A stretch of DNA of 64,000 nucleotides from Patescibacteria group bacterium (GTDB lineage Bacteria > Patescibacteriota > Patescibacteriia > PEXW01): NCBI GenBank assembly GCA_038065235.1, contig JBBTRK010000005.1, positions 22,389 through 86,388 of the forward strand, read 5' to 3'. The translations under genes were made by a program, and so were the position numbers. Below are positions 3,517 to 57,000 of this stretch, piece after piece; position 1 is the stretch's first letter; each line of letters opens with the position of its first letter. Under the pieces are notes generated by a model. That model saw only the letters and a program-made list of their open reading frames with translations. It made no database searches and had not been told where the DNA came from.

Positions 3517-4143
3517 ATGCCAGATCAACCAAAAGATATTTTCCAAGAGGTCGAGCCCGCAGCAGATGCGCAACCGGTTCGCCGTGCAGTTCCGGCAGCC
3601 CCGGTTATCCCGTCGGTTGTACCAACCCCAGAAATTCGGGGTGTACAACCTGCCCGCTATGACTCGCAGCGCGTGGCAGGCGGGCCGCGACGTTCACGCA
3701 TGCCTTTTCTGGTCGGTGGGGCAGTCGTGCTGCTCATCGGCATTGTGGCAGTTGTGGTACTGGTGCGCCGACAAACCCCAGCACCTGTGGTCCAGAGTAA
3801 TGTGCAAAATAGCAATACAACAACGAATGCCGCAGCAGCCACGACGAACACCCAACCTGCGCCGGTAGTGGTTCAGCCAGAGGTTGTTGCGAACGATGCG
3901 GACCGCGATGGCCTGACCACCGATGAGGAGCAGAAGCTAGGAACCAAGGATACGCTGGCAGATACCGATGGTGACGGCTTGAGTGACTGGGACGAGGTGA
4001 AAGTGTACAAGACCAACCCGCTGAAGCCGGATACGGATGGCGATGGGAACGCCGATGGCGCTGAAGTAAAAAAAGGGTATAATCCAAATGGTTCTGGCCT
4101 GCTCCTAGATTTTGAGGCCGCCAAGCAGAAGCTCACCAAGTAA
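3517..4143 (+). CDS. Membrane-anchored protein with thrombospondin type-3-like Ca-binding repeats.
   Basis: Pro-rich N-terminus, one TM helix, then DxDxDG repeats (DADRDGLTTDEE, DTDGDGLSDWDE, DTDGDGNADGAE). Confidence 0.65.
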   Translation: MPDQPKDIFQEVEPAADAQPVRRAVPAAPVIPSVVPTPEIRGVQPARYDSQRVAGGPRRSRMPFLVGGAVVLLIGIVAVVVLVRRQTPAPVVQSNVQNSNTTTNAAAATTNTQPAPVVVQPEVVANDADRDGLTTDEEQKLGTKDTLADTDGDGLSDWDEVKVYKTNPLKPDTDGDGNADGAEVKKGYNPNGSGLLLDFEAAKQKLTK

Positions 4144-13179: not shown

Positions 13180-13297
13180 ATGTAACGACAACTTCCCCCT
13201 GCCCCCTCCTTGGTAAGGAGGGGGTTTCGTGTAGACCAGCTTCCTCCCTCCCCTTGAGAAGGGGAGGGTTGGGGTGGAGTTGGAGTATACTCGGGGT

Positions 13298-44780: not shown

Positions 44781-44938
44781 ATACTTCGTCTTTCCGCAAA
44801 ACCCGCCAGCCAGCGGGTTTTGTATTTCATCGGGGCAAGCTGGTATTCCTATTGTGTTTTTGCAGAAATTCAGTAGCATTATTGTCAGAAAAAGAAAACT
44901 AACTATCTTGAAAACCAAAAGGAAGGAGGGTAACCACC

Positions 44939-45316: not shown

Positions 45317-45509
45317 CTAGTGGTTCATTCAAAGGCTTGAACAATTTGTTCAGGCCTTTATTTTTACCCCCTTTCTAACCCCCACTCACACGAATGCGGG
45401 AATAAAAAGAGTGGGCATCCGTTTGGATACCCACGTTTGCCGAATGGCGCGGCTTCTTATCCGCATGCTCACTATGATGTGAGGCTATGCATTACACCGC
45501 GGTTCGGGT

Positions 45510-45764
45510 TTAGGAGCGCTTGGTGCGCTTGCGTTCATCTTTGGCCTTCAGGAAGGCCGGGAGATTCGCACACGCTTTTTCAAGCATTGCATGTACGTGC
45601 TGATCGTACTCATCGCTCGAATGCCCATTTTGGCCGAGAATGAACTTTTGATACTCACTGGTTCTCCGACCGATTTCGTTCAATCCATCCTCTACCATGA
45701 AGCTCATGATAGTGCTGACAACGAACAGTTCGGCCGCGGCTTCTCTTGTTATTGGCTTAGCCAC
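45510..45764 (-). CDS. Small hypothetical protein.
   Basis: ORF only. Confidence 0.35.
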   Translation of the reverse strand: MAKPITREAAAELFVVSTIMSFMVEDGLNEIGRRTSEYQKFILGQNGHSSDEYDQHVHAMLEKACANLPAFLKAKDERKRTKRS

Positions 45765-45832
45765 ACAATCACCTCCTTTCAGGCTGTTTTAGGTGACAGG
45801 AAAATCTATACCAAAATGTAGCATTTGTCAAT

Positions 45833-45897
45833 GCCAACCCCGCTTGCCGACCGAAGCTCTAATGAGCGAAGGCTGGGGGCAGAGGGGTGGGGGAATT
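45833..45897. repeat. GC-rich palindromic repeat, family A, copy 1.
   Basis: ccaacccc...ttgccgaccgaagc...gcgaaggctgggggcagaggggtggggg. Confidence 0.7.
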
Positions 45898-45932
45898 GTT
45901 AGTAAAGCAGTTGCGGCTAAGCGTAAACATTC

Positions 45933-46658
45933 TTGACGTTATGTGTGGAACCTGGTAATTTTTTCAACCACGTTCTTTCCCATAACCAATCAGTGAAACG
46001 GAGGTACCCGTTGAGCAATCGAATTCTTGGCATGTGGTTACGTTACCTGTGTATAATACCTGGCCTACCGCCACGTGGTGATCTATCGACCGCGGATGTG
46101 GTACTGGTGCAGGCTTTCGGTCGCAACCAGTACCCCGACAGCGAGCTCGATCACATTACTGATCTGCATGTTGCGTACGGTAAGCAGGATGCCGTAACGA
46201 TAGCAAAGTTACGCGAACAAGGCTTTGATCCTGGTCAACCAAACCGAGACCTCGCTCTGGCTTGCCAGCAGCTAGTGGACACGTATGGTATTGCAGCAAT
46301 TGTCCAGTGGGAGGTTACCGTCGCCTTTGATCCCGCGTGGTACGCCGCGCACCGCAACCGCATTGTCAGTCTGTGGCCGACGGCGGAGTACTTTTCTACT
46401 AGGCTGGTGCAAGAGCACAGCCTGCGGGTGATGCAAGAGCACGGGTGGACAAAGCCCATTGAGCTGGCGCATAGCTGGCAAATCGTTCGCGCCTTCCTCA
46501 TTGTGAGGAAATTATTTGGCCATGAACCTATGGTCAGCTCCGAAACCATACGATGCTTTGATTCGAAATCCGTCCAATGGTGGACGAGGTCCAAGGTTAA
46601 ATGGTTAGCATACGAGTGCTTGGCGCGTGTCCATCATGTGTTGTATCGCTGGGTGTAA
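45933..46658 (+). CDS. Hypothetical protein.
   Basis: ORF only. The start may be an internal ATG. Confidence 0.4.
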   Translation: MTLCVEPGNFFNHVLSHNQSVKRRYPLSNRILGMWLRYLCIIPGLPPRGDLSTADVVLVQAFGRNQYPDSELDHITDLHVAYGKQDAVTIAKLREQGFDPGQPNRDLALACQQLVDTYGIAAIVQWEVTVAFDPAWYAAHRNRIVSLWPTAEYFSTRLVQEHSLRVMQEHGWTKPIELAHSWQIVRAFLIVRKLFGHEPMVSSETIRCFDSKSVQWWTRSKVKWLAYECLARVHHVLYRWV

Positions 46659-46705
46659 CGGAAGGTCTTTGAAACCGGCCCCAATTTTGGAGCCGGTTTT
46701 TCTTT

Positions 46706-46784
46706 TCCCCCAACCCCCCCCCTATCGGCCGAAGTCCCGCGCATGCGGGACGAAGGCTGAAACCCCCCCCCGCCCCCGGGGTAG
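46706..46784. repeat. Family A-like GC palindrome with long C homopolymers and an inner tcccgcgcatgcggga palindrome.
   Basis: Seen directly in the sequence. Confidence 0.6.
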
Positions 46785-46861
46785 AGAATATTTTGGCATT
46801 GTATTCTTTGATTGGTACACTACTGTGCATCAACGCACTTCACACTTATGAGCGCATTATT

Positions 46862-48016
46862 ATGAATCCTATTCGTCGGTTTGGCGCTTTACTAGCGATC
46901 GTGGCTGCAGTAGCAGTCATGCTTTTCCCTTTGGCTAGCGTTCGAGCGCAAGCCAACGAAGAGTCGTTCAAAGCGAAAGTGGTGGAAGTCCTTGAGAACA
47001 AAACCACTCCAGAAGAAGAAGGTGCGGCCCTACCCCAGCAGAAGTTGCAGCTGCAAGGCCTTTCTGGTACCTGGAAAGGGAAGAGCATCATCTTCGACGG
47101 TACGAAGTATGAGGTCATGTCGGCGAGTAGGTACGAAGTCGGTGATGTCGTCATGGTTAATGTATCTGCAGACGCAGATGGGAATAAAGAATTCTTCGTC
47201 GTCGACTACGTCCGGCAGAACTCGCTCTACTGGCTCGCAGCACTTTTCGCATTAGTGGTTGTCGTTGTGGGCAGGCTCAAAGGCCTGCGCGCACTTGCCG
47301 TGCTGCTGCTGACTTTCGTGGTCATCCAGAAGTTCATCGTGCCAAGAATCCTCGCCGGTGATAACCCGCTCGTCATTAGCATTCTTGGTGCGTTGGTTAT
47401 CCTCGGCATTGCAATCTACATTACGGAAGGCTTCAAGCGTTCCTCTACTATTGCCATTGGCTCGGTCCTGCTCTCGCTCATTATCACCGGCCTGCTGTCT
47501 ATTGCGTTTACCGCCGCAGCGAAGCTCACGGGATTTGCAAGTGAAGAAGCCATTTACCTCAAAGGGCTCTCTGGGGTGGACATTAACGTGCATGGCTTAC
47601 TACTCGCCGGCATCATCATCGGTACCCTGGGGGTTTTGGATGATGTCATTATTTCTCAAGTGATGGTGGTAGAAGAATTGAAGCACGCAAACCGTAGCCT
47701 GACGAATCGCACCGTCTTCGCAAAAGCAATGCGGGTGGGCATTGGGCACATGAGCGCCTTGGTGAACACGCTCTTCCTCGCCTACGCCGGGGCATCGCTG
47801 CCACTCCTCTTGCTCTTCAGTGTTCGCGAGGAGCCGTTCCTGACGTTTAATCAGGTCATCAACAACGACATGATCGCTACAGAAATTGTCCGTACGCTCA
47901 CGGGCAGCATTGGCATTGTCCTCGCCGTACCGATTGCCACAGCACTAGCAGTAAAATTTATAAAAGCAAGTAAAGGTGGGGATACCGAGGTTGCCGACAG
48001 CACCCACCGGCACTAA
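46862..48016 (+). CDS. YibE/F-family membrane protein.
   Basis: Signal/TM, an extracellular domain, then multiple TMs with a GVLDDVIIS motif. Confidence 0.5.
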   Translation: MNPIRRFGALLAIVAAVAVMLFPLASVRAQANEESFKAKVVEVLENKTTPEEEGAALPQQKLQLQGLSGTWKGKSIIFDGTKYEVMSASRYEVGDVVMVNVSADADGNKEFFVVDYVRQNSLYWLAALFALVVVVVGRLKGLRALAVLLLTFVVIQKFIVPRILAGDNPLVISILGALVILGIAIYITEGFKRSSTIAIGSVLLSLIITGLLSIAFTAAAKLTGFASEEAIYLKGLSGVDINVHGLLLAGIIIGTLGVLDDVIISQVMVVEELKHANRSLTNRTVFAKAMRVGIGHMSALVNTLFLAYAGASLPLLLLFSVREEPFLTFNQVINNDMIATEIVRTLTGSIGIVLAVPIATALAVKFIKASKGGDTEVADSTHRH

Positions 48017-48047
48017 CTGAAACCTTTTTGGTTCGGGTTCCCCCCAA

Positions 48048-48127
48048 CCCCCTTGCCGACCGTAGCTTACTTGCCGTCCGAAGCTTTAGCGTAGGAAGGG
48101 GCGCAGGCTGGGGGCAGAGGGGTGGGT
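48048..48127. repeat. Family A repeat, copy 3.
   Basis: ttccccccaacccccttgccgaccgtagctt...ggctgggggcagaggggtggg. Confidence 0.7.
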
Positions 48128-48164
48128 TTTGGCGTTCACTTCTTCAGCCTGGTAGACTAGGGGC

Positions 48165-48655
48165 ATGACCCTATTGCCCGCGGAGACGATTAGGGTCAGA
48201 ATGTTATTTTTTTGGGTTATGTAAAAACCGCTCGGGGATTGAGCGGTTTTGAGTAATACGGTATTTGGGTTACTTTCACATTAGCCGGCGAAAGCTTGGA
48301 TGGCCGCAGCGCAGGCTGCAATAATGAGCATAATGGTTACGGAAATTGCAGAGCAAACAAAAAGGATCAGGGTTACGTGCAAGAGTTTTGCCCGATAGTA
48401 CTTCCCAGCGCTTTCGGCAGTAAAAAGTAAGGCCCAGCTTATCACGACTCCAGCGCAGCTAATGGGGATTAAGAACAGCCACGCCCACCAATAAGCAGAT
48501 ATAAAATTTATCAATGTTGCCTCCGTTGGTTTTCTCAAACCTACACCCCCAGCTTGAGTAGTCAATAGCTTGCACGTACAATACAGGTATGAACCTCATG
48601 TCATCTTTGAATAGTGAACAAAAACAGGCGGTTACGCATGCGTCCGGCCCGCTGT
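48165..48655. repeat. Left copy of a 491-bp perfect direct repeat.
   Basis: Identical to 53606-54096 (atgaccctattgcccgcggagacg ... gcgtccggcccgct). Confidence 0.9.
48281..48514 (-). CDS. Small 2-TM membrane protein, left duplicate copy. Probable TTG start after GGAGG; the ORF track extends it to 48565.
   Basis: MINFISAYWWAWLFLIPIS... A highly hydrophobic ~77 aa. Confidence 0.5.
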   Translation of the reverse strand: MINFISAYWWAWLFLIPISCAGVVISWALLFTAESAGKYYRAKLLHVTLILFVCSAISVTIMLIIAACAAAIQAFAG

Positions 48656-48671
48656 TAATCGTTGCTGGTGG
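48589..48671 (+). pseudogene. Duplicated 5' fragment of the UvrD-like helicase gene.
   Basis: MNLMSSLNSEQKQAVTHASGPLLIVAG is identical to the start of the 54031 gene, then diverges before Walker A. Confidence 0.75.
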
Positions 48672-48755
48672 AGAGATATTGTTAGGTAGGCCACGAAAGT
48701 CGACACACGAAAGTCGGCACTTGATATTCTGTATTACTTTGGGTAGAGTATCTCT

Positions 48756-49031
48756 ATGCTCTTACACGTAAATGTACCCCTCTCCATTTTCCGCGAAGGT
48801 AAGCGTTTTGTGGCCTTTACCCCAGCACTCGACCTCTCTACCTCTGGCAAGTCCCTTGCCGAGGCAAAGTCTCGTTTTTCCGAAGCCGTCCAGCTCTTCT
48901 TTGAAGAGTTAGAACGGATGGGGACAGTGGACGAAACACTTTCCGATCTCGGCTGGCACAAAGCCGAGCGGAAGTGGCAAGCGCCCCAGCCAATTTTTCA
49001 AGATACACAGCGGGTGCAAGTCGCGGTGTAA
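48756..49031 (+). CDS. hicB: HicB-family antitoxin (UPF0150 fold).
   Basis: FVAFTPALDLSTSGKSLAEAKSRFSEAVQLFFEELE matches the HicB N-domain pattern. Adjacent to hicA. Confidence 0.65.
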   Translation: MLLHVNVPLSIFREGKRFVAFTPALDLSTSGKSLAEAKSRFSEAVQLFFEELERMGTVDETLSDLGWHKAERKWQAPQPIFQDTQRVQVAV

Positions 49032-49035
49032 TTTT

Positions 49036-49266
49036 ATGCCGCGCGTCACGCCGGTACACTGGAAGCGCTTTGAGAAGTTTCTCCTCTACGTTGGTTGCAC
49101 GTTCGTTCGAGAGAAAGGTGACCACCGCATCTACACGCGGGATGGTTTATCGCGCCCGGTTGTTGTCCCCCGCGACACGCAGCTGCCGATATTCATTATA
49201 CGGAATAACTTACGCGTCCTTGGTATTTCGACGGACGACTACTTGCAAATTTTAGACCGCGTGTAG
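49036..49266 (+). CDS. hicA: HicA-family mRNA interferase toxin.
   Basis: WKRFEKFLLYVGCTFVREKGDHRIYTRDG...VVVP fits the K..L...GW...R.KGSH..F HicA pattern. Confidence 0.7.
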   Translation: MPRVTPVHWKRFEKFLLYVGCTFVREKGDHRIYTRDGLSRPVVVPRDTQLPIFIIRNNLRVLGISTDDYLQILDRV

Positions 49267-49352
49267 CAGGTTCCTCGTATGGCCCTATTGCCCATGCGCT
49301 AGGGGATTTGTTTATGCTTCCGAGCGCAGCATCTCCAAGCTGCGCTCTCTCC

Positions 49353-49392
49353 ATTCCCCCAACCCCCGCCCGCCCCAGGGGGCAGAGGGATT
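49353..49392. repeat. Family A repeat, short copy.
   Basis: cccccaacccccgcccgccccagggggcagaggg. Confidence 0.6.
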
Positions 49393-49481
49393 GACAAAGC
49401 GTAGTATTTCTAGTACATTGTATTGTTCCTAGAAAAAGTACAAAGTACCCTGACAATATTCACACAGAAAGGTGGAATTTC

Positions 49482-50468
49482 GTGCAAAAAGACCCAGTTG
49501 TTTACTTGGGCGAGGCATGGCGTGATGCACATGCCGTCGCGGTTCTGGATCATCAACGAGTCGTTGCAGAAAAGCAACTGGCTCGTACGCTCGTCCAAGA
49601 CGAAGATGTCATGGGCGAACGAGTTCTTTACGGTTGCACAGTGCAAGTGCCAGTTGGCATCGCACATGCAGATCGTGCTGTAGAATCTGCTTCTACCGAG
49701 TTTGAGCTTGTTCAAGCAGAGGCAGAACAGGCAAAAGCATTCGAATGCGAATGTCTGACGGAGACCGGTATAGCCCCGCTAGCAGTTGTACCGACGAATA
49801 TATGGGAACAGGTGACCAAGGCCTGGGGGTTGGTGAGGTTCGAATACCTGGAGCACTCCCGCGCCTACGCGCGTACTGTCAGCGAGCCGCCAATGCCTTC
49901 GGAGACTCGTAGAGCTGCGTGGATGTACTCCATTTCTGCTTGCATTGCACTGTGCATGGTCGCCATTCTGGCGATCGTTGCATCGGTATACTGGTGGGGT
50001 GCCGCATTCGTTGCTGTGTTTCTTTCCTGGTGTGCCTATGTTCTGGTTCGCGAGTACCGCACAAAGTCAAAAGCGCGTAGTGCATACGAGCAGCGTAAAC
50101 AGACACCGGGAGGGTTCGTTTCCGAGCTCTGGCCAGATGGGCATGACTATTACGAGTACCTCGTTCGAATGTCTGATTTCGGTGAGTTCTGCCAGCTTCC
50201 CGTAGCGTTTCCAAACGCACCCAAGAGCTTTGTTGAGAAGTTGCTTCGGTTAGAATCCAAGAGGGTACATTGCTGCATTGCCGCCGCCCCCGAAGCAATT
50301 CACGTCAAGCTTAGCGAAGCAAGACCGGCACCGAATGCCGATCCCATACTGTATATCAAGTCTCCATGCGGAGGCTTCGTAGCAGTCCTCGACCGCTTCG
50401 GTAACTTCGAAAATGAAGCGCGTGCCGTCCAGCAAGCGCAAGACATCACGGCACAGTACTACGCCTAA
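49482..50468 (+). CDS. Hypothetical protein with two central TM helices.
   Basis: GTG start after AAAGGTGG. Confidence 0.45.
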   Translation: MQKDPVVYLGEAWRDAHAVAVLDHQRVVAEKQLARTLVQDEDVMGERVLYGCTVQVPVGIAHADRAVESASTEFELVQAEAEQAKAFECECLTETGIAPLAVVPTNIWEQVTKAWGLVRFEYLEHSRAYARTVSEPPMPSETRRAAWMYSISACIALCMVAILAIVASVYWWGAAFVAVFLSWCAYVLVREYRTKSKARSAYEQRKQTPGGFVSELWPDGHDYYEYLVRMSDFGEFCQLPVAFPNAPKSFVEKLLRLESKRVHCCIAAAPEAIHVKLSEARPAPNADPILYIKSPCGGFVAVLDRFGNFENEARAVQQAQDITAQYYA

Positions 50469-50522
50469 CACCAACATTCGTTGTTTGATGACCAGCACCC
50501 TAAAAAGTGCTGGTTTTCTTTT

Positions 50523-50633
50523 TCCCCCAACCCCCTTGCCGTCCGTAGCTTTCTTGCCGACCGAAGCCTTGGCGAAGGTCGGAGCGTAGGACGGTGGCGT
50601 AGGTCGGTGCGCCCCGAGGGAGGGGGCAGCGGC
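50523..50633. repeat. Family A repeat, expanded copy with internal cgtaggWcgg sub-repeats.
   Basis: tttcccccaacccccttgccgtccgtagctttcttgccgaccgaagc...gagggagggggcagcggccc. Confidence 0.7.
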
Positions 50634-50678
50634 CCAGGTTGACGCCCACTTTCGGCTGGCGTACACTAGTTTTTACTT

Positions 50679-50951
50679 ATGTCTGCCCCAACTACTGAAT
50701 ACCTAGACCAGCGTTTTGAGCGCCTGGAATTAGCTACGCAATCTATTCTGACCGAAATGCGTCAGCGGTTTGCTGACCATGACGCCCGTTTCCAGCGTAT
50801 TGAAGCAACCTTAGCAACCCTTGTAGAATCCGTTGATCGTTTTGCAAAAATTTACACCGATCTAAACCAGGAAGTCGTGGTTATGCGGCAACAGCTTCGC
50901 GACGTGGAATCGCGTGTGGGGAAACTGGAGCTCAAGTTGAAGACAGCGTAA
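50679..50951 (+). CDS. Small coiled-coil hypothetical protein.
   Basis: ORF followed by a terminator hairpin. Confidence 0.45.
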   Translation: MSAPTTEYLDQRFERLELATQSILTEMRQRFADHDARFQRIEATLATLVESVDRFAKIYTDLNQEVVVMRQQLRDVESRVGKLELKLKTA

Positions 50952-51085
50952 TTATTCATTTTCTGGCAAACCCCGAGCATCCGCCCGGGGTTTTCTTTTT
51001 GCCGAATTTTCCCCCACCCCCAACCCCCGCGCCCCGGAACGTAAAACAAAAAGCCCAACTCTCGTGAGTTGGGCCAAAAGTAATT

Positions 51086-51313
51086 TTACTTTTTCGTATC
51101 GCCCTTCTTCGTGCATTCGACGCTAACCTTCAGCCGCCACTGTGCACCGCAGCGCGTGCAGGTAAAAGTCTTTTTGCCATCGACGAATACGACTGGCTTG
51201 CCACAGTGGCATGCCTGGGAGGGGATAGGCGTGAAGAGATGACCTATTTCCAGAATCAACCTCTCGCCGGCAGTTTGAATCACTTTTCTTAAAGAGCTAG
51301 TTTCGCTTGCCAT
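51086..51313 (-). CDS. Small zinc-ribbon protein.
   Basis: CHCG...CTRCG. Confidence 0.45.
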   Translation of the reverse strand: MASETSSLRKVIQTAGERLILEIGHLFTPIPSQACHCGKPVVFVDGKKTFTCTRCGAQWRLKVSVECTKKGDTKK

Positions 51314-51384
51314 GTAAATACCTCACTTTGTATGTGACTTTGTTTAACGGCTTACTGTAGCTAGGTAAGCTGCCTTTGTCAACC

Positions 51385-51466
51385 AAACCCCGCGCCCCCG
51401 CCCCAGGGGAGGGCAGAGGTCCGCCCGGCACGCCTACGGCGCAGCCGTGGCGGACGGGGGTGGGGG
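51385..51466. repeat. Family A repeat copy. A partial copy also lies at 51009-51037.
   Basis: caaaccccgcgcccccgccccaggggagggcagagg...gggggtgggggat. Confidence 0.65.
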
Positions 51467-51540
51467 ATAACCTGTTCACAAGCTAGCCCTTGCCGTTTGC
51501 TGTGGGAAAGCTAAAATAGTACTTATTTTAAAGTTATTGT

Positions 51541-52335
51541 ATGACTTCTGATAAAGAGTTTAATAAGGCAGCGCTGACAGCCGTAATATGCGCATTCATA
51601 ATCATGACATTTGTATTATTGTGGCGTTCTGGGGTGGATATAAGGTGGGCTGATGTACTAATTAATTTGTGTATAGCGTTACTTACAGCAATAATTTCAA
51701 TATTCGCCGCATTTGCTTTGTATAAGAGAGGGAAGAAAGCTGAGCAAAAAAGAGTGTTCGCAAACTTTAAACTGCTGTTTGCCGCATTTGTTTCAGAGAC
51801 TAATGACAATTTAGGTATACTAGTGTCATATCAAAAATCTGTAACGACAGATTCAATTTCGCATTTTAAAATGCTAACTGAAGTAATATCTAAAATAGTT
51901 ACTAACCATTTAATCTATAAACATTTAAGTGAGGAGCATGTAGTAGCAATTCGTTACGCACTTCATAAATACTTAGAGCTAAATAGCTATCTTGAAATTT
52001 TGATGCCGATTTTTTATGAGGGGAAAATTACTGAGCATTTAGTAAAACAGTTGCAGTTAGATGCAAAGAAAGTCAGGTATTATGCACTCGTTTTGCAGAA
52101 TTTAAACCAGGTTGCATTAAATGTGCTTGACGTTAGGTGGGTACCAAGTACAGATACTAAGTTGTTATATATGGATTTGTTGAAAAATGAGCCTAAGGAA
52201 GACGATCTTGAAAAATTTATTGATAAGTTGAAAAGCCATATAGAAATTGAGAAAAATATTAGCGCTCAACAAAAAGCGATTTCTAAAAAGAACTATTTAG
52301 CCGCAATGGAGAGGTACGAGAAAAAGTTAGAGTGA
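51541..52335 (+). CDS. AT-rich hypothetical protein with an N-terminal 2-TM anchor.
   Basis: Strongly AT-rich relative to the flanks. Confidence 0.55.
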   Translation: MTSDKEFNKAALTAVICAFIIMTFVLLWRSGVDIRWADVLINLCIALLTAIISIFAAFALYKRGKKAEQKRVFANFKLLFAAFVSETNDNLGILVSYQKSVTTDSISHFKMLTEVISKIVTNHLIYKHLSEEHVVAIRYALHKYLELNSYLEILMPIFYEGKITEHLVKQLQLDAKKVRYYALVLQNLNQVALNVLDVRWVPSTDTKLLYMDLLKNEPKEDDLEKFIDKLKSHIEIEKNISAQQKAISKKNYLAAMERYEKKLE

Positions 52336-53605: not shown

Positions 53606-54096
53606 TATGACCCTATTGCCCGCGGAGACGATTAGGGTCAGAATGTTATTTTTTTGGGTTATGTAAAAACCGCTCGGGGATTGAGCGGTTTTGAGTAATA
53701 CGGTATTTGGGTTACTTTCACATTAGCCGGCGAAAGCTTGGATGGCCGCAGCGCAGGCTGCAATAATGAGCATAATGGTTACGGAAATTGCAGAGCAAAC
53801 AAAAAGGATCAGGGTTACGTGCAAGAGTTTTGCCCGATAGTACTTCCCAGCGCTTTCGGCAGTAAAAAGTAAGGCCCAGCTTATCACGACTCCAGCGCAG
53901 CTAATGGGGATTAAGAACAGCCACGCCCACCAATAAGCAGATATAAAATTTATCAATGTTGCCTCCGTTGGTTTTCTCAAACCTACACCCCCAGCTTGAG
54001 TAGTCAATAGCTTGCACGTACAATACAGGTATGAACCTCATGTCATCTTTGAATAGTGAACAAAAACAGGCGGTTACGCATGCGTCCGGCCCGCTC
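53606..54096. repeat. Right copy of the 491-bp direct repeat. It carries the genuine 5' end of the helicase gene.
   Basis: See the left copy. Confidence 0.9.
53723..53956 (-). CDS. Small 2-TM membrane protein, right duplicate copy.
   Basis: Identical to the 48281..48514 copy. Confidence 0.5.
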   Translation of the reverse strand: MINFISAYWWAWLFLIPISCAGVVISWALLFTAESAGKYYRAKLLHVTLILFVCSAISVTIMLIIAACAAAIQAFAG

Positions 54097-57000
54097 CTTA
54101 TCGTTGCCGGCGCGGGGACGGGCAAGACCACCGTCGTCACCCAGCGCATTGCCTGGCTCATTGCCGAAAAGAAGATTAAGCCTGACCACATCCTCGGGTT
54201 AACGTTCACGGACAAAGCCGCCGGGGAACTGGAAGAGCGCGTGGACAAGCTGCTGCCCATGGGCTACGTGGATTTGTGGGTGAGCACGTTCCACAGCTTC
54301 TGCGAGCGCATCCTGCGGGATCACGCCCTGGACATTGGCCTTAGCCCCGACTTCACCTTGCTGGATGAGACGGACCAGGCCATTCTGATGCGCGAGCACC
54401 TGGAGCAATTCGACTTGAGCTACTACCGGCCGTTGGGCAACCCGACGAAGTTCGTGTCCAGCCTCATCAAGCACTTCAGCCGGTGCAAGGATGAAGCAAT
54501 TCGGCCAGAGGAATATCTGAAATACGCAGAAAAGTTACGGCTGGATTTGGATCAGGTGCATGGGCGCAAAAAGCATTCGCAGGATGAAGACAAGGATGAA
54601 ATCGTTGAAGTAGACAGGATAAACGAAATTGCGAACGCGTACCACACCTACCAGCAGCTCCTGTTCCAGAAGGGGAGCCTGGACTTCGGCGACCTCATCA
54701 CGCAGACGCTCTATCTCTTCCAGCAGCGGCCCAAGATTCTGGAGCGCTACCGCAAGCAGTTCGAGTACATCCTGGTGGACGAATTCCAGGACACGAACTG
54801 GGCGCAGTACGAGCTGGTGAAGTTGCTCGCTGCCCCGCAGAACAACCTGACCGTGGTGGGGGATGATGACCAGAGTATCTACAAGTTCCGCGGCGCCAGC
54901 GTGGCCAACATTCTGGCGTTCAAGACGGACTTCCCCAAAGCCAAAGAAGTGGTGCTCACCCAGAACTACCGCAGCACGCAAAACATTCTGGACTTGGCCT
55001 ACGACTTCATCCAGGCGAACAACCCGAATAGGTTAGAGGTGCAGCTTGGTAATACACCCCCCCTTACCCCCCCTTCGAAAGGGGGGGAGGGTGAGGGAGC
55101 CAAGAAGCGTGGGCGACGGAAAAATTCCGCACCCCAATTATCTCCCTCTTCACAAGGGGGAGAGGGAGGGGGTCGAGACAAGGCCTTTGCGATTAGCAAA
55201 AAGCTTTTTGCTCAAGAGCAAGGCACCGGTACAATAGAGTATTCCATTGCACCGATTCTGGAGCAGGAAGCCACTGGCGCAGTGGAGAAAATCCTGGAGC
55301 TCAAGAAGAAGAAAGGCACCAGCTACAACGATTTTGCCATTCTGGTGCGCGCCAATGATTCGGCGCAGCCCTTCATCCAGCGCCTGAAAGCCGCGGACGT
55401 GCCGTTCCAGTTCGTGGCCACGGCCGGGCTGTACCGCCAACCCATTGTGCTGGACATCCTCAACTACCTCAAGCTGCTAGATAACTTCCACGAGAGCGCC
55501 AGCTTGTACCGCATGCTCACCCTCCCATCCCTGTGCATTCCCTTGCAGGATGTGATGAGCATGATGGCTACAGCGCGGCGGGAGACCAAGTCGCTGTACG
55601 AAGTGTCCAAGAACGTCCGTGCGCTCACCGGGATGCAACCCGAGACAATCGCGGCTGTGGAAAAACTTCATGGGTGGCTCGAAGCGCACGGCCAACTGGC
55701 GCGCACGCAGCCCGTGGGTGAAGTGGCCTTGAAGTTCTTGGAAGACTCGGGTTTGATGAAAGACCTCACCAGCTCCACAGACGCTGACCACTTGGAAGTG
55801 GTGAACTACATGAACCAGCTGTTCCAAGTGTTCCAGAGCTTCCAGATGCGGCACGAAGAACCGACGGTGAAGAATTTTTTGCACGAATTAGCTTTCGCCC
55901 AAGACGCGGGCGATTCTGGAAGTCTGCGGCCGCCCGAATGGGAGCAAGGCCCAGAGGCTGTGAAGCTCATGACCATTCACAGCGCCAAAGGCTTGGAATT
56001 CCCGTACGTGTTCATTGCGAACTTGGTTGATAAGAGATTCCCCACAATCGAGCGCCGCGACGCCATTGAACTACCCGATGATCTCGTCAGAGAGAAACTT
56101 CCCGAAGGGGACTGGCACTTGCAAGAAGAGCGACGCCTCATGTATGTGGCCATCACCCGCGCCAAGCAAGGCGTGTTCTTCACGGCCGCGGAAGACTACG
56201 GCGGCACGCGCAAGAAAAAGCCCTCGCGCTTCATTGAAGAGCTTGGCCTCAAAGCCAAACCGTTCAAATTAAAGGGTGGATTGTTGGATAAGCAAAAGGC
56301 GCCTGCACGTCAAGAAAATGACGCCGAATTACTGCGTAAAGCACTGCCCCCGTACTTCAGCTTCACGCAGTTGAAGGCGTTTGAGAAATGCCCTAAGCAG
56401 TACAAGTACGCCCACTTGCTGAAGATCCCGGTGCCAGGGCATGCCACGTTGAGCTTTGGCCAAACCATTCATAACACCTTGCTCAACTTCTTCAAGCTGG
56501 CACGCGAGCGCGGCATGGCCGGTCAGGCTGATTTGTTCGGCAAGAAAGACCAGGCCACCAGCGGCCCGCCTGTTACCTGGGCCGAGCTGCAGCAAATTTA
56601 CCAAGCCAACTGGCAAGACATGTGGTACAGCAGCATGGCGCAGAAGACGGAGTACAAGCACCGCGGCGTAAAGTTCCTCAAAAACTTCTACGATTCTCTC
56701 CCAACACCGTGGCCACAACCAACCGAGCTGGAAAAAGGTTTTACCATTGTCATCAACGGCCATAAAGTAAAAGGCAAGATTGACCGCATTGACCCCAGCA
56801 CTGGCGGCATAGAAATTATTGACTACAAGACCAGCGAGAAACCGCCAGCAGAAAACAAAGCCGATTTGGAACAGCTGCACATTTACGCTATGGCCGCGCG
56901 CGAAGCGCTTGGACTCAATCCGGTGAAGCTCACCTTCATTTACCTGGCCGCCGAAAAACCCTTTAGCTACCCAATTGACGAAAAGGCCATTGAGAAAACC

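Follow-up and report, generated by a model that had tools for sequence, protein, structure and literature searches.

Classical repetitive extragenic palindromes (REPs) are dispersed genome-wide in both orientations, and the BOX elements of Streptococcus pneumoniae, organized as boxA-(boxB)n-boxC, occur in ~100 copies genome-wide and are often transcribed with neighbouring genes. To our knowledge, REP-like repeats are unreported in Patescibacteria, and a literature search for the motif described here or for REPs in Patescibacteria found nothing relevant. In REPs, one end of the stem-loop bears a conserved GTAG-type tetranucleotide that is unpaired, and intragenic REPs have been reported in repair genes (PMC3733652). 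The hairpin body of the GTAG-3 type consists of a stem, an unpaired trinucleotide, a GC-loop-GC core, a further unpaired stretch and the closing stem (PMC3733652). The substrates of REP-associated tyrosine transposases (RAYTs) are hairpins in single-stranded DNA (PMC3733652 and works cited there). The subject of the present analysis is a family of GC-rich palindromic repeats in a window of 64 kb, the whole stretch analyzed, from a Patescibacteria group bacterium (contig JBBTRK010000005.1 of assembly GCA_038065235.1). All coordinates are window positions, and the copies in the window are named W0 to W7. The ~1-Mb genomes of Patescibacteria contain hardly any non-coding DNA, and how these bacteria exchange accessory and defence genes is poorly understood.

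With moderate confidence, the copies are regarded as a lineage-specific, modular family of a small groundwater clade of Patescibacteria, similar to REPs and bacterial interspersed mosaic elements (BIMEs), that forms the DNA-level joints of an island of single-gene cassettes. Direct reading of window 45500-51800 confirmed a GC-rich element at each of the seven positions (7/7) where a sequence-only reading had placed one. These seven copies and one degenerate copy, all on the plus strand, span 45.4-51.5 kb and are listed below with their main hairpins, termed type B.

W0, 45366..45385, plus strand: degenerate relic of a left module (ACCCCCTTTCTAACCCCCAC), immediately downstream of the speH terminator, read from the sequence, of low confidence as a family member
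W1, 45833..45894, plus strand: left end CCAACCCC, a single B hairpin and right end GGCTGGGGGCAGAGGGGTGGGGGA, between divergent promoters
W1 B hairpin, 45847..45876, plus strand: CCGACC-GAA-GC, loop, GC-GAA-GGCTGG
W2, 46707..46786, plus strand: C5AAC9, variant B hairpin, C9GC5GGGG and truncated right end (TAGAG), fold z -3.8
W2 variant B hairpin, 46725..46760, plus strand: TCGGCC-GAA-GTCCCGCG, CATG, CGCGGGAC-GAA-GGCTGA, with a near-identical one in metagenome contig L108
W3, 48040..48126, plus strand: C6AAC5, two nested B units and GGCTGGGGGCAGAGGGGTGGG, after yibE
W3 nested B hairpins, 48056..48111, plus strand: sub-repeat matches with compensatory pairing
W4, 49356..49390, plus strand: bare scaffold CCCCCAACCCCCGCCCGCCCCAGGGGGCAGAGGGA, scaffold-model score 30.1 bits, E 1.2e-7
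W5, 50524..50638, plus strand: C5AAC5, B units (two left, three right) and degenerate right end (GGGGGCAGCGG)
W5 nested B hairpins, 50539..50607, plus strand: A-T and T-A compensatory arms
W6, 51011..51037, plus strand: left half only, C5AC5AAC5GCGC4GG, between convergent terminators
W7, 51383..51467, plus strand: scaffold interrupted by a 36-nt hairpin between GGGCAGAGG and GGGGGTGGGGGA, z -3.6

The motif CCCCCAACCCCC occurs five times in the window at ≤1 mismatch against 0.43 expected, a number reached in 0/100 shuffles, and GGGGGCAGAGGG has three exact occurrences. The sub-repeats CCGWCCGWAGC (five times) and GCGWAGGWCGG (three times) were found only in these copies and only on the plus strand, and repeat detection identified stretches of 25-83 nt common to copies. 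A sequence model of the scaffold recovered from the window only these copies and one weak match of a different subfamily (13243-13277, minus strand). Elsewhere in the window, and in ~16 kb of additional flanking sequence (contigs L133 and L134), no family copy was found; window and flanks together make up the ~80 kb of this genome that was covered. All copies are intergenic, and coding sequence was rejected as an explanation, as no open reading frame (ORF) spans any of them. The sequence-only reading had copies in nearly every gap; this proved too high, as about eight of the ~13 intergenic gaps of the block are occupied. The shared arms around an inner palindrome that it also described are complete only in W1 and W3. 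In W5 the palindrome is present and the right arm has degenerated; W2 contains a variant hairpin, and the ttgccgaccgaagc module is missing from W4, W6 and W7.

Of interest is also window 13190-13290, where two adjacent minus-strand hairpins of another C/G-tract subfamily (CCACCCCAACCCTCCCCTTCTCAAGGGGAGGGAGG and AACCCCCTCCTTACCAAGGAGGGGGCAGGGGGAAG) lie between a ribonucleotide reductase gene and a small convergent gene. Hairpins similar to this pair are located downstream of uvrD in the relatives' contigs L131 and L132.

When the simplest copies of the window and the relatives are aligned, the family resolves into mosaics on a scaffold, CCCCCAACCCCC-GCGCCCCC-GGGG-CAGAGGGGTGGGGGA, which can be written C5AAC5 - GCGC5 - G4CAGAG4TG5A and measures ~35-40 nt. 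The two scaffold ends, C-rich on the left and G-rich on the right, pair with each other; copies fold over their whole length, and small GC-rich hairpins nest within the scaffold at positions that vary. The principal hairpin, B, consists of a 6-bp stem, an unpaired G-W-A, GC, a loop of 4-8 nt or a further stem, GC, a second G-W-A and the closing stem. Among nine B hairpins from five genomes, 95.8% of the cells are paired and four of the eight pairs vary on both sides (C-G/T-A, G-C/C-G, A-T/T-A/G-C); 0/500 shuffles matched the observed values, and slid registers gave nothing. Four G-T pairs occur in the B hairpins, where the opposite strand would have A-C mismatches, and the GWA triplets have the same orientation on both arms and are not complementary, which points to the plus strand as the structured one. 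Every B unit contains the tetranucleotide G(T/A)AG, always in plus orientation, but inside a symmetric internal loop; the scaffold-only copies W4 and W6 are without it. The family evolves by gaining and losing hairpin modules, as revealed by comparison of orthologous spacers: W5 measures 115 nt against ~30-35 nt in the orthologous gap of relatives L132 and L128, and W7 and its orthologue (L128 7833-7951) contain different inserts at different points of the scaffold.

The relatives' sequence covered amounts to ~110 kb. It includes four contigs with UvrD proteins 84-92% identical to that of the window (L128, L129, L130 and L132), contig L100, chosen through a YibE 85% identical, metagenome contig L108, and the more distant loci L101 and L102 (YibE 68%) and L131 (UvrD 72%). 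Window proteins are matched exactly in groundwater metagenomes from the Hainich H52 well and in the NCBI metagenome-assembled genome (MAG) GCA_038062575.1, and their homologues carry Patescibacteria annotation. About 30 copies were found in seven genomes (the window, L100, L108, L128, L129, L130 and L132), every one oriented like uvrD and located between speH/DUF975 (or purD) and uvrD; the more distant L101, L102 and L131 have none. The copies keep this orientation whatever that of the neighbouring genes, and in the relatives nearly all of them stand directly behind the T-run of a terminator, with a -35 box downstream. In the sequence covered, all copies lie in one island of 5-8 kb and in one orientation, a provisional result.

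The generic GC-rich terminator sequence that the sequence-only reading had named as its refutation is not what was found: a consensus exists, though the end motifs C5AAC5 and GGGCAGAGG by themselves are neither lineage-specific nor diagnostic. The signature C5AAC5...GGGCAGAGG gave 94 matches in species-representative genomes (L006-L099) of many phyla, heterogeneous and mostly single-copy, and these matches include no Patescibacteria and no nearby RAYT. Eleven of them have the nested build of the scaffold described here, for example atcCCCCCAACCCCCCTTTGGCAAAGGGGGGCAGAGGggggat in Nitrospiraceae, Methylococcaceae and Deinococcota, and one Polyangiaceae MAG has ~11 loci; such a wide spread among phyla may represent convergence or an old, widespread type of hairpin. 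In metagenomes the pattern AACCCC...GGGCAGAGGGGTGGG had 23 matches, one of them a true relative (L108) and 22 due to chance, and a viral scan for the motif returned one chance match only.

The region from speH/DUF975 to uvrD, a uvrD-like helicase gene, is hypervariable and differs in content in every genome, with hardly any proteins in common. It contains HicAB and ORFans in the window, including a 328-aa cassette protein without homologues in the search made, and genes for TIR, SMODS, AAA_15/21 and DUF6602 proteins, an IS200-type element and others in the relatives. Exact matches to the HicA protein were found only in the same gene arrangement. A 384-aa gene after speH in L128 and L129 was considered as yibE and rejected.

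Each gene is flanked by promoters resembling those of sigma-70 and by terminators (19 promoter-like sites against 6.9 expected), and the copies occupy a constant place with respect to both. Terminators composed of a hairpin and a U-run precede W2, W5 and W6, and a strong hairpin precedes W4. Four copies lie 0-2 nt from a -35 hexamer: the minus-strand TTGACA boxes end at 45831 for W1 and at 51382 for W7, which is also located between divergent promoters, and plus-strand boxes directly adjoin W4 (TTGACA at 49391) and W5 (TTGACG at 50639). W2 has a -35 TTGGCA downstream, at 46793, and W3 adjoins a TTGGCG...TAGACT promoter-like site. No copy is followed by a T-run of its own, so that the hairpin with a direct U-run at a gene 3' end that typifies intrinsic terminators is not seen, and no copy matches Rfam 15 at the gathering threshold; at E≤5 only the neighbouring terminators do. 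That the copies are downstream of terminators, lack a T-run, occupy divergent-promoter sites and have no Rfam match speaks against their being terminators, RNA stabilizers or structured-RNA genes. The sequence-only reading had suggested termination or transcript stabilization; this is not supported by copies that lie 3' of real U-run terminators or, in two cases, between divergent promoters. The terminators themselves recur: window 44782-44826 resembles L132 5887-5931, window 50968-51003 resembles L129 7554-7589, and L100 12317-12363 resembles L129 5502-5548. A few terminator hairpin types thus occur repeatedly after genes that are unrelated, in one genome and across genomes, which gives them the look of shared modules.

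Comparison of the islands locates many of their differences in or beside copies. Homology of the window with L100 and L128 ends at W0. In L100 one element occupies the place that in the window is split by an insertion (45372-46764) holding two genes, W1 and part of W2. An extra 132-aa cassette in L128 lies between two near-identical left modules (CCYCCAACCCCAACCCCCGCGCCCC), with the unit CCAACCCCAACCCCCGCGCCCC at its edges in two copies against one in the window, where the single W6 stands. W4 and its promoter (window 49356-49409) are 85% identical over 55 nt to L132 4013-4064, and the terminator together with the start of W5 (window 50462-50526) is 89% identical over 65 nt to L132 5377-5441; the ORFs between these two frames, of 328 aa in the window and 419 aa in L132, have no similarity. 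Units of a terminator and a left module, 36-47 nt long and 85-94% identical, also occur behind unrelated genes in different genomes. The role in recombination suggested by the sequence-only reading is therefore consistent with cassette insertions and deletions and with mosaic breakpoints in or beside copies, evidence that is circumstantial.

Strains of the same population also differ within the island. A block of 4.95 kb carrying W4-W7 is missing from contig L002 and is bracketed in the window by an exact 491-bp direct duplication (48165-48655 and 53607-54097). This duplication contains a minus-strand gene for a 94-aa membrane protein, the uvrD promoter and the first uvrD codons. In other assemblies the block appears as a separate ~5-kb contig, and its end has a low GC content (35-44%, 51.5-53.6 kb). 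Three contigs stop at W3 or just past it. Four of the few strain differences fall in copies, in the C-run lengths of W2 and at 48104 in W3, where a C>A change in strain L004 restores a canonical GCGAAGG unit. The poly-C runs of W2 (46713; 46763-46771) vary between assemblies of one population (C9 vs C7, C10 or +1), which may be either real slippage or homopolymer assembly error.

A 15-mer, ATGRCCCTATTGCCC ('MTLLP'), resembles the start-codon region of uvrD and was found in the window at 48165, 49279, 53232 and 53607, as well as in L108, L128 (9854), L129 (9161), L130 (9854) and L132 (8136 and 8320). It is always on the plus strand, with flanks that differ between copies and often behind a TTGGCA-N17-TAGACT promoter-like site, and it may represent a conserved crossover core at the uvrD 5' end, where modules would accumulate; no recombinase was seen near these sites. 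A truncated uvrD 5' end (MNLMSSLNSEQKQAVTHASGPLLIVAG...) lies directly upstream of hicB-hicA at window 48589-48680, and L132 has the same uvrD fragment with hicBA immediately before an intact uvrD, so that a HicBA module appears to have been inserted into the start of uvrD.

A RAYT homologue is encoded within the island of L132 (3402-3959, 185 aa). It covers the full NCBIfam profile REP_Tyr_transpos (NF047646) with an E value of 8.4e-22, matches Pfam Y1_Tnp, has as its best solved structure 4ER8, the E. coli TnpA-REP, and contains the motifs HVH (HUH) and YMKHNP (Y..NP). Repeat copies are present on both sides of its gene. At a distance of 2 kb there is a further protein of this kind, a separate IS200-type TnpA that has hairpins of its own. 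A hairpin, GAGCGCAGC(A/T)TCTCCAAGCTGCGCT, occurs both after hicA in the window (49322-49346) and in frame inside the L132 RAYT-like ORF (3675-3699). The nearest DDE-type recombinase gene to the island in this genome is an IS30-like transposase (HTH_38 and rve domains) in L134 (20603-21613), ~8 kb beyond the right end of the window. The plus strand has more G than C over 13-64 kb and is therefore probably the lagging-strand template, on which hairpins of this kind can form.

According to the REP/BIME-like reading, the copies would act as DNA and not as functional RNA, filling the gap from the terminator of one unit to the -35 box of the next. A Y1 HUH transposase of the RAYT type would generate or mobilize their hairpin modules while the DNA is single-stranded, and the stretches of 35-65 nt that combine repeat and promoter or terminator and repeat may serve as portable homology for the insertion, deletion and swapping of cassettes, probably after DNA uptake. 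Insulation of neighbouring transcription units might be a side effect.

Several observations weigh against this reading. Recombination and RAYT activity are both inferred from sequence comparison, and no RAYT or other recombinase was found in the 64-kb window or in the loci of five other relatives. The L132 protein scores 77.6 bits, just below the curated cut-off of 80, and the copies at its flanks are not specific evidence, since copies border every cassette of the island. Clustering and a single orientation set the copies apart from REPs, which are dispersed and commonly found in inverted pairs; the sequence covered represents ~8% of this genome, taking the genome as ~1 Mb. GWAG sits in the hairpin loop and not as a terminal unpaired tag, and nearest-neighbour folding energies predicted for the plus and minus strands show no asymmetry. 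Some breakpoints are located at ORF edges and not in repeats, any array of independent units would be expected to show some intergenic breakpoints, and the 4.95-kb insert is not bounded by repeats.

The reading could be extended further: the island might constitute an integron-like platform without an integron integrase, in which single-gene cassettes with their own promoters and terminators are inserted, excised or swapped at modular C-tract/G-tract palindromes that are either processed as single-stranded hairpins by a Y1 HUH enzyme of the RAYT type or recombined through short homology after DNA uptake. This extension is proposed tentatively, as rather unlikely. Action at the level of transcription, as back-up terminators, insulators, modulators upstream of promoters or 3'-end RNA stabilizers, seems unlikely. 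The copies do always lie in a gap between terminator and promoter, their hairpins are stable, their G-T pairs would suit RNA, and the four that abut a -35 box place G-rich DNA at about -36 to -48 of plus- and minus-strand promoters. Against this, they are downstream of complete terminators without a U-run or an Rfam match, W1 and W7 are placed where promoters diverge and a plus-strand transcript is not expected, other terminator-promoter gaps of the window and the relatives have no copies, and orthologous gaps tolerate versions of 30 nt or 115 nt. That the copies are attC-like sites of an integron cluster without integrase, on which a site-specific tyrosine recombinase encoded elsewhere moves circular single-gene cassettes via folded repeats, is quite improbable. 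They resemble such sites as a co-oriented array between single genes, as imperfect palindromes of 27-115 nt with conserved ends and variable centres, in holding a HicAB toxin-antitoxin cassette, in one cassette indel bracketed by direct repeats, and in a left end, CCCCAAC, close to the inverse core RYYYAAC. No integrase is found within 45 kb upstream or 20 kb downstream here, however, nor within 10 kb in six relatives, and Pfam scans and gene tables revealed no tyrosine recombinase in the window or in the loci of the six relatives. The right end is GGGGTGGGGG and not GTTRRRY, and the right end GGGGTGGGGGA is without GTT; each cassette has its own promoter and terminator where promoterless cassettes would be expected, and the strain-variable 4.95-kb insert is bounded by the 491-bp duplication and not by repeats.

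In Neisseria, the pilE G-quadruplex is four-stranded DNA that triggers local recombination. A comparable role for the (C4-5A2)n tracts, which have a G-rich minus strand and might form a G-quadruplex or i-motif that stalls replication or transcription, is very improbable here. The left modules resemble the Tetrahymena telomere (C5AAC5, and CCCCAACCCCAACCCCC in L128 and L129), and W4 and W6 satisfy the minus-strand rule of four G3+ tracts separated by N1-7, as do few other sites in 64 kb; yet only two of the seven copies satisfy it, each C-rich end has in cis a G-rich complement that favours the hairpin, and the covarying B hairpins have no part in such a model. The absence of any family, with generic GC-rich filler or chance similarity in its place, is already refuted and retains next to no probability. 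The end motifs do recur in many phyla, where the 94 matches are mostly unrelated hairpins, and 22 of the 23 metagenome pattern matches arose by chance. Against this stand motifs enriched over shuffles, modules of 25-83 nt in common, covarying stems and a family maintained in the same island of seven genomes. The attC, G-quadruplex and transcriptional explanations are weaker than the REP/BIME-like one.

The locus is a conserved chromosomal slot in which each sampled lineage has different single-gene units and one structured repeat family between them. If the repeats are recombination joints, the biology of REPs and RAYTs would extend to a new phylum, and REP-like repeats would be linked to cassette turnover and not to mere dispersal; they would also provide a sequence handle for variable islands in MAGs, where such repeats break assemblies. 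If the island is in fact an integron-like platform, genome-reduced Patescibacteria would have a dedicated site for the turnover of defence and accessory genes.

The family may be compared with several known systems. Clustered regularly interspaced short palindromic repeats (CRISPR) were rejected, the intervening 'spacers' being whole genes, as were uptake signal sequences, the copies being clustered and not dispersed. The label of miniature inverted-repeat transposable elements (MITEs), which the sequence-only reading had offered next to that of REPs, had to be abandoned: no target-site duplication accompanied by terminal inverted repeats flanks any copy, and orthologous gaps differ by internal modules and not by the clean presence or absence of an element. 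BOX elements share with this family modularity, conserved ends, a variable number of internal units, intergenic location and strong folding; there is no sequence relation, and the copies here are clustered at cassette junctions past terminators. Integron attC arrays, including the clusters of attC sites lacking integrases (CALIN), are likewise co-oriented, separate single-gene cassettes, have conserved ends with variable centre and length, contain toxin-antitoxin cassettes and act through single-strand folding, as is proposed for the copies here. Unlike attC arrays, the island has no IntI and no GTTRRRY/RYYYAAC pair, its cassettes possess promoters and terminators of their own, and shared promoter and terminator frames surround ORFs that are unrelated.

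In-frame GC-tract palindromes in the uvrD-like repair helicase gene (55048-55175), which are related to the intergenic copies and belong to a different subfamily, recall intragenic REPs and the palindromic elements of Rickettsia. The palindrome at 55048-55100, C7TTAC7TTCGAAAG7AGGGTGAGGGA, encodes TPPLTPPSKGGEGEG and that at 55125-55175 encodes APQLSPSSQGGEGGG, and both are situated in a linker whose counterpart in the proteins of all relatives is short or different.

The closest known kind is the REP/BIME/REPIN system with its RAYT (REPIN, REP doublet forming hairpins), described in Proteobacteria such as E. coli, Pseudomonas and Stenotrophomonas. The present family differs from it by its Patescibacteria host, by its single orientation and confinement to one island in the sequence covered, by GWAG in an internal loop, by a self-pairing C-tract/G-tract scaffold, by copies set at junctions against promoters and by the lack of a RAYT in the window. 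As in REPs and BIMEs, its copies are short, extragenic, GC-rich imperfect palindromes grouped in mosaic clusters of hairpin units with linkers, their stems vary by compensatory and G-T changes, the B hairpin matches the GTAG-3 body, the G(T/A)AG tetranucleotide is kept in one orientation and, in the sister lineage L132, a RAYT homologue lies among the copies. The REP-like label given by the sequence-only reading is thereby supported for an extragenic, hairpin-forming and modular family.

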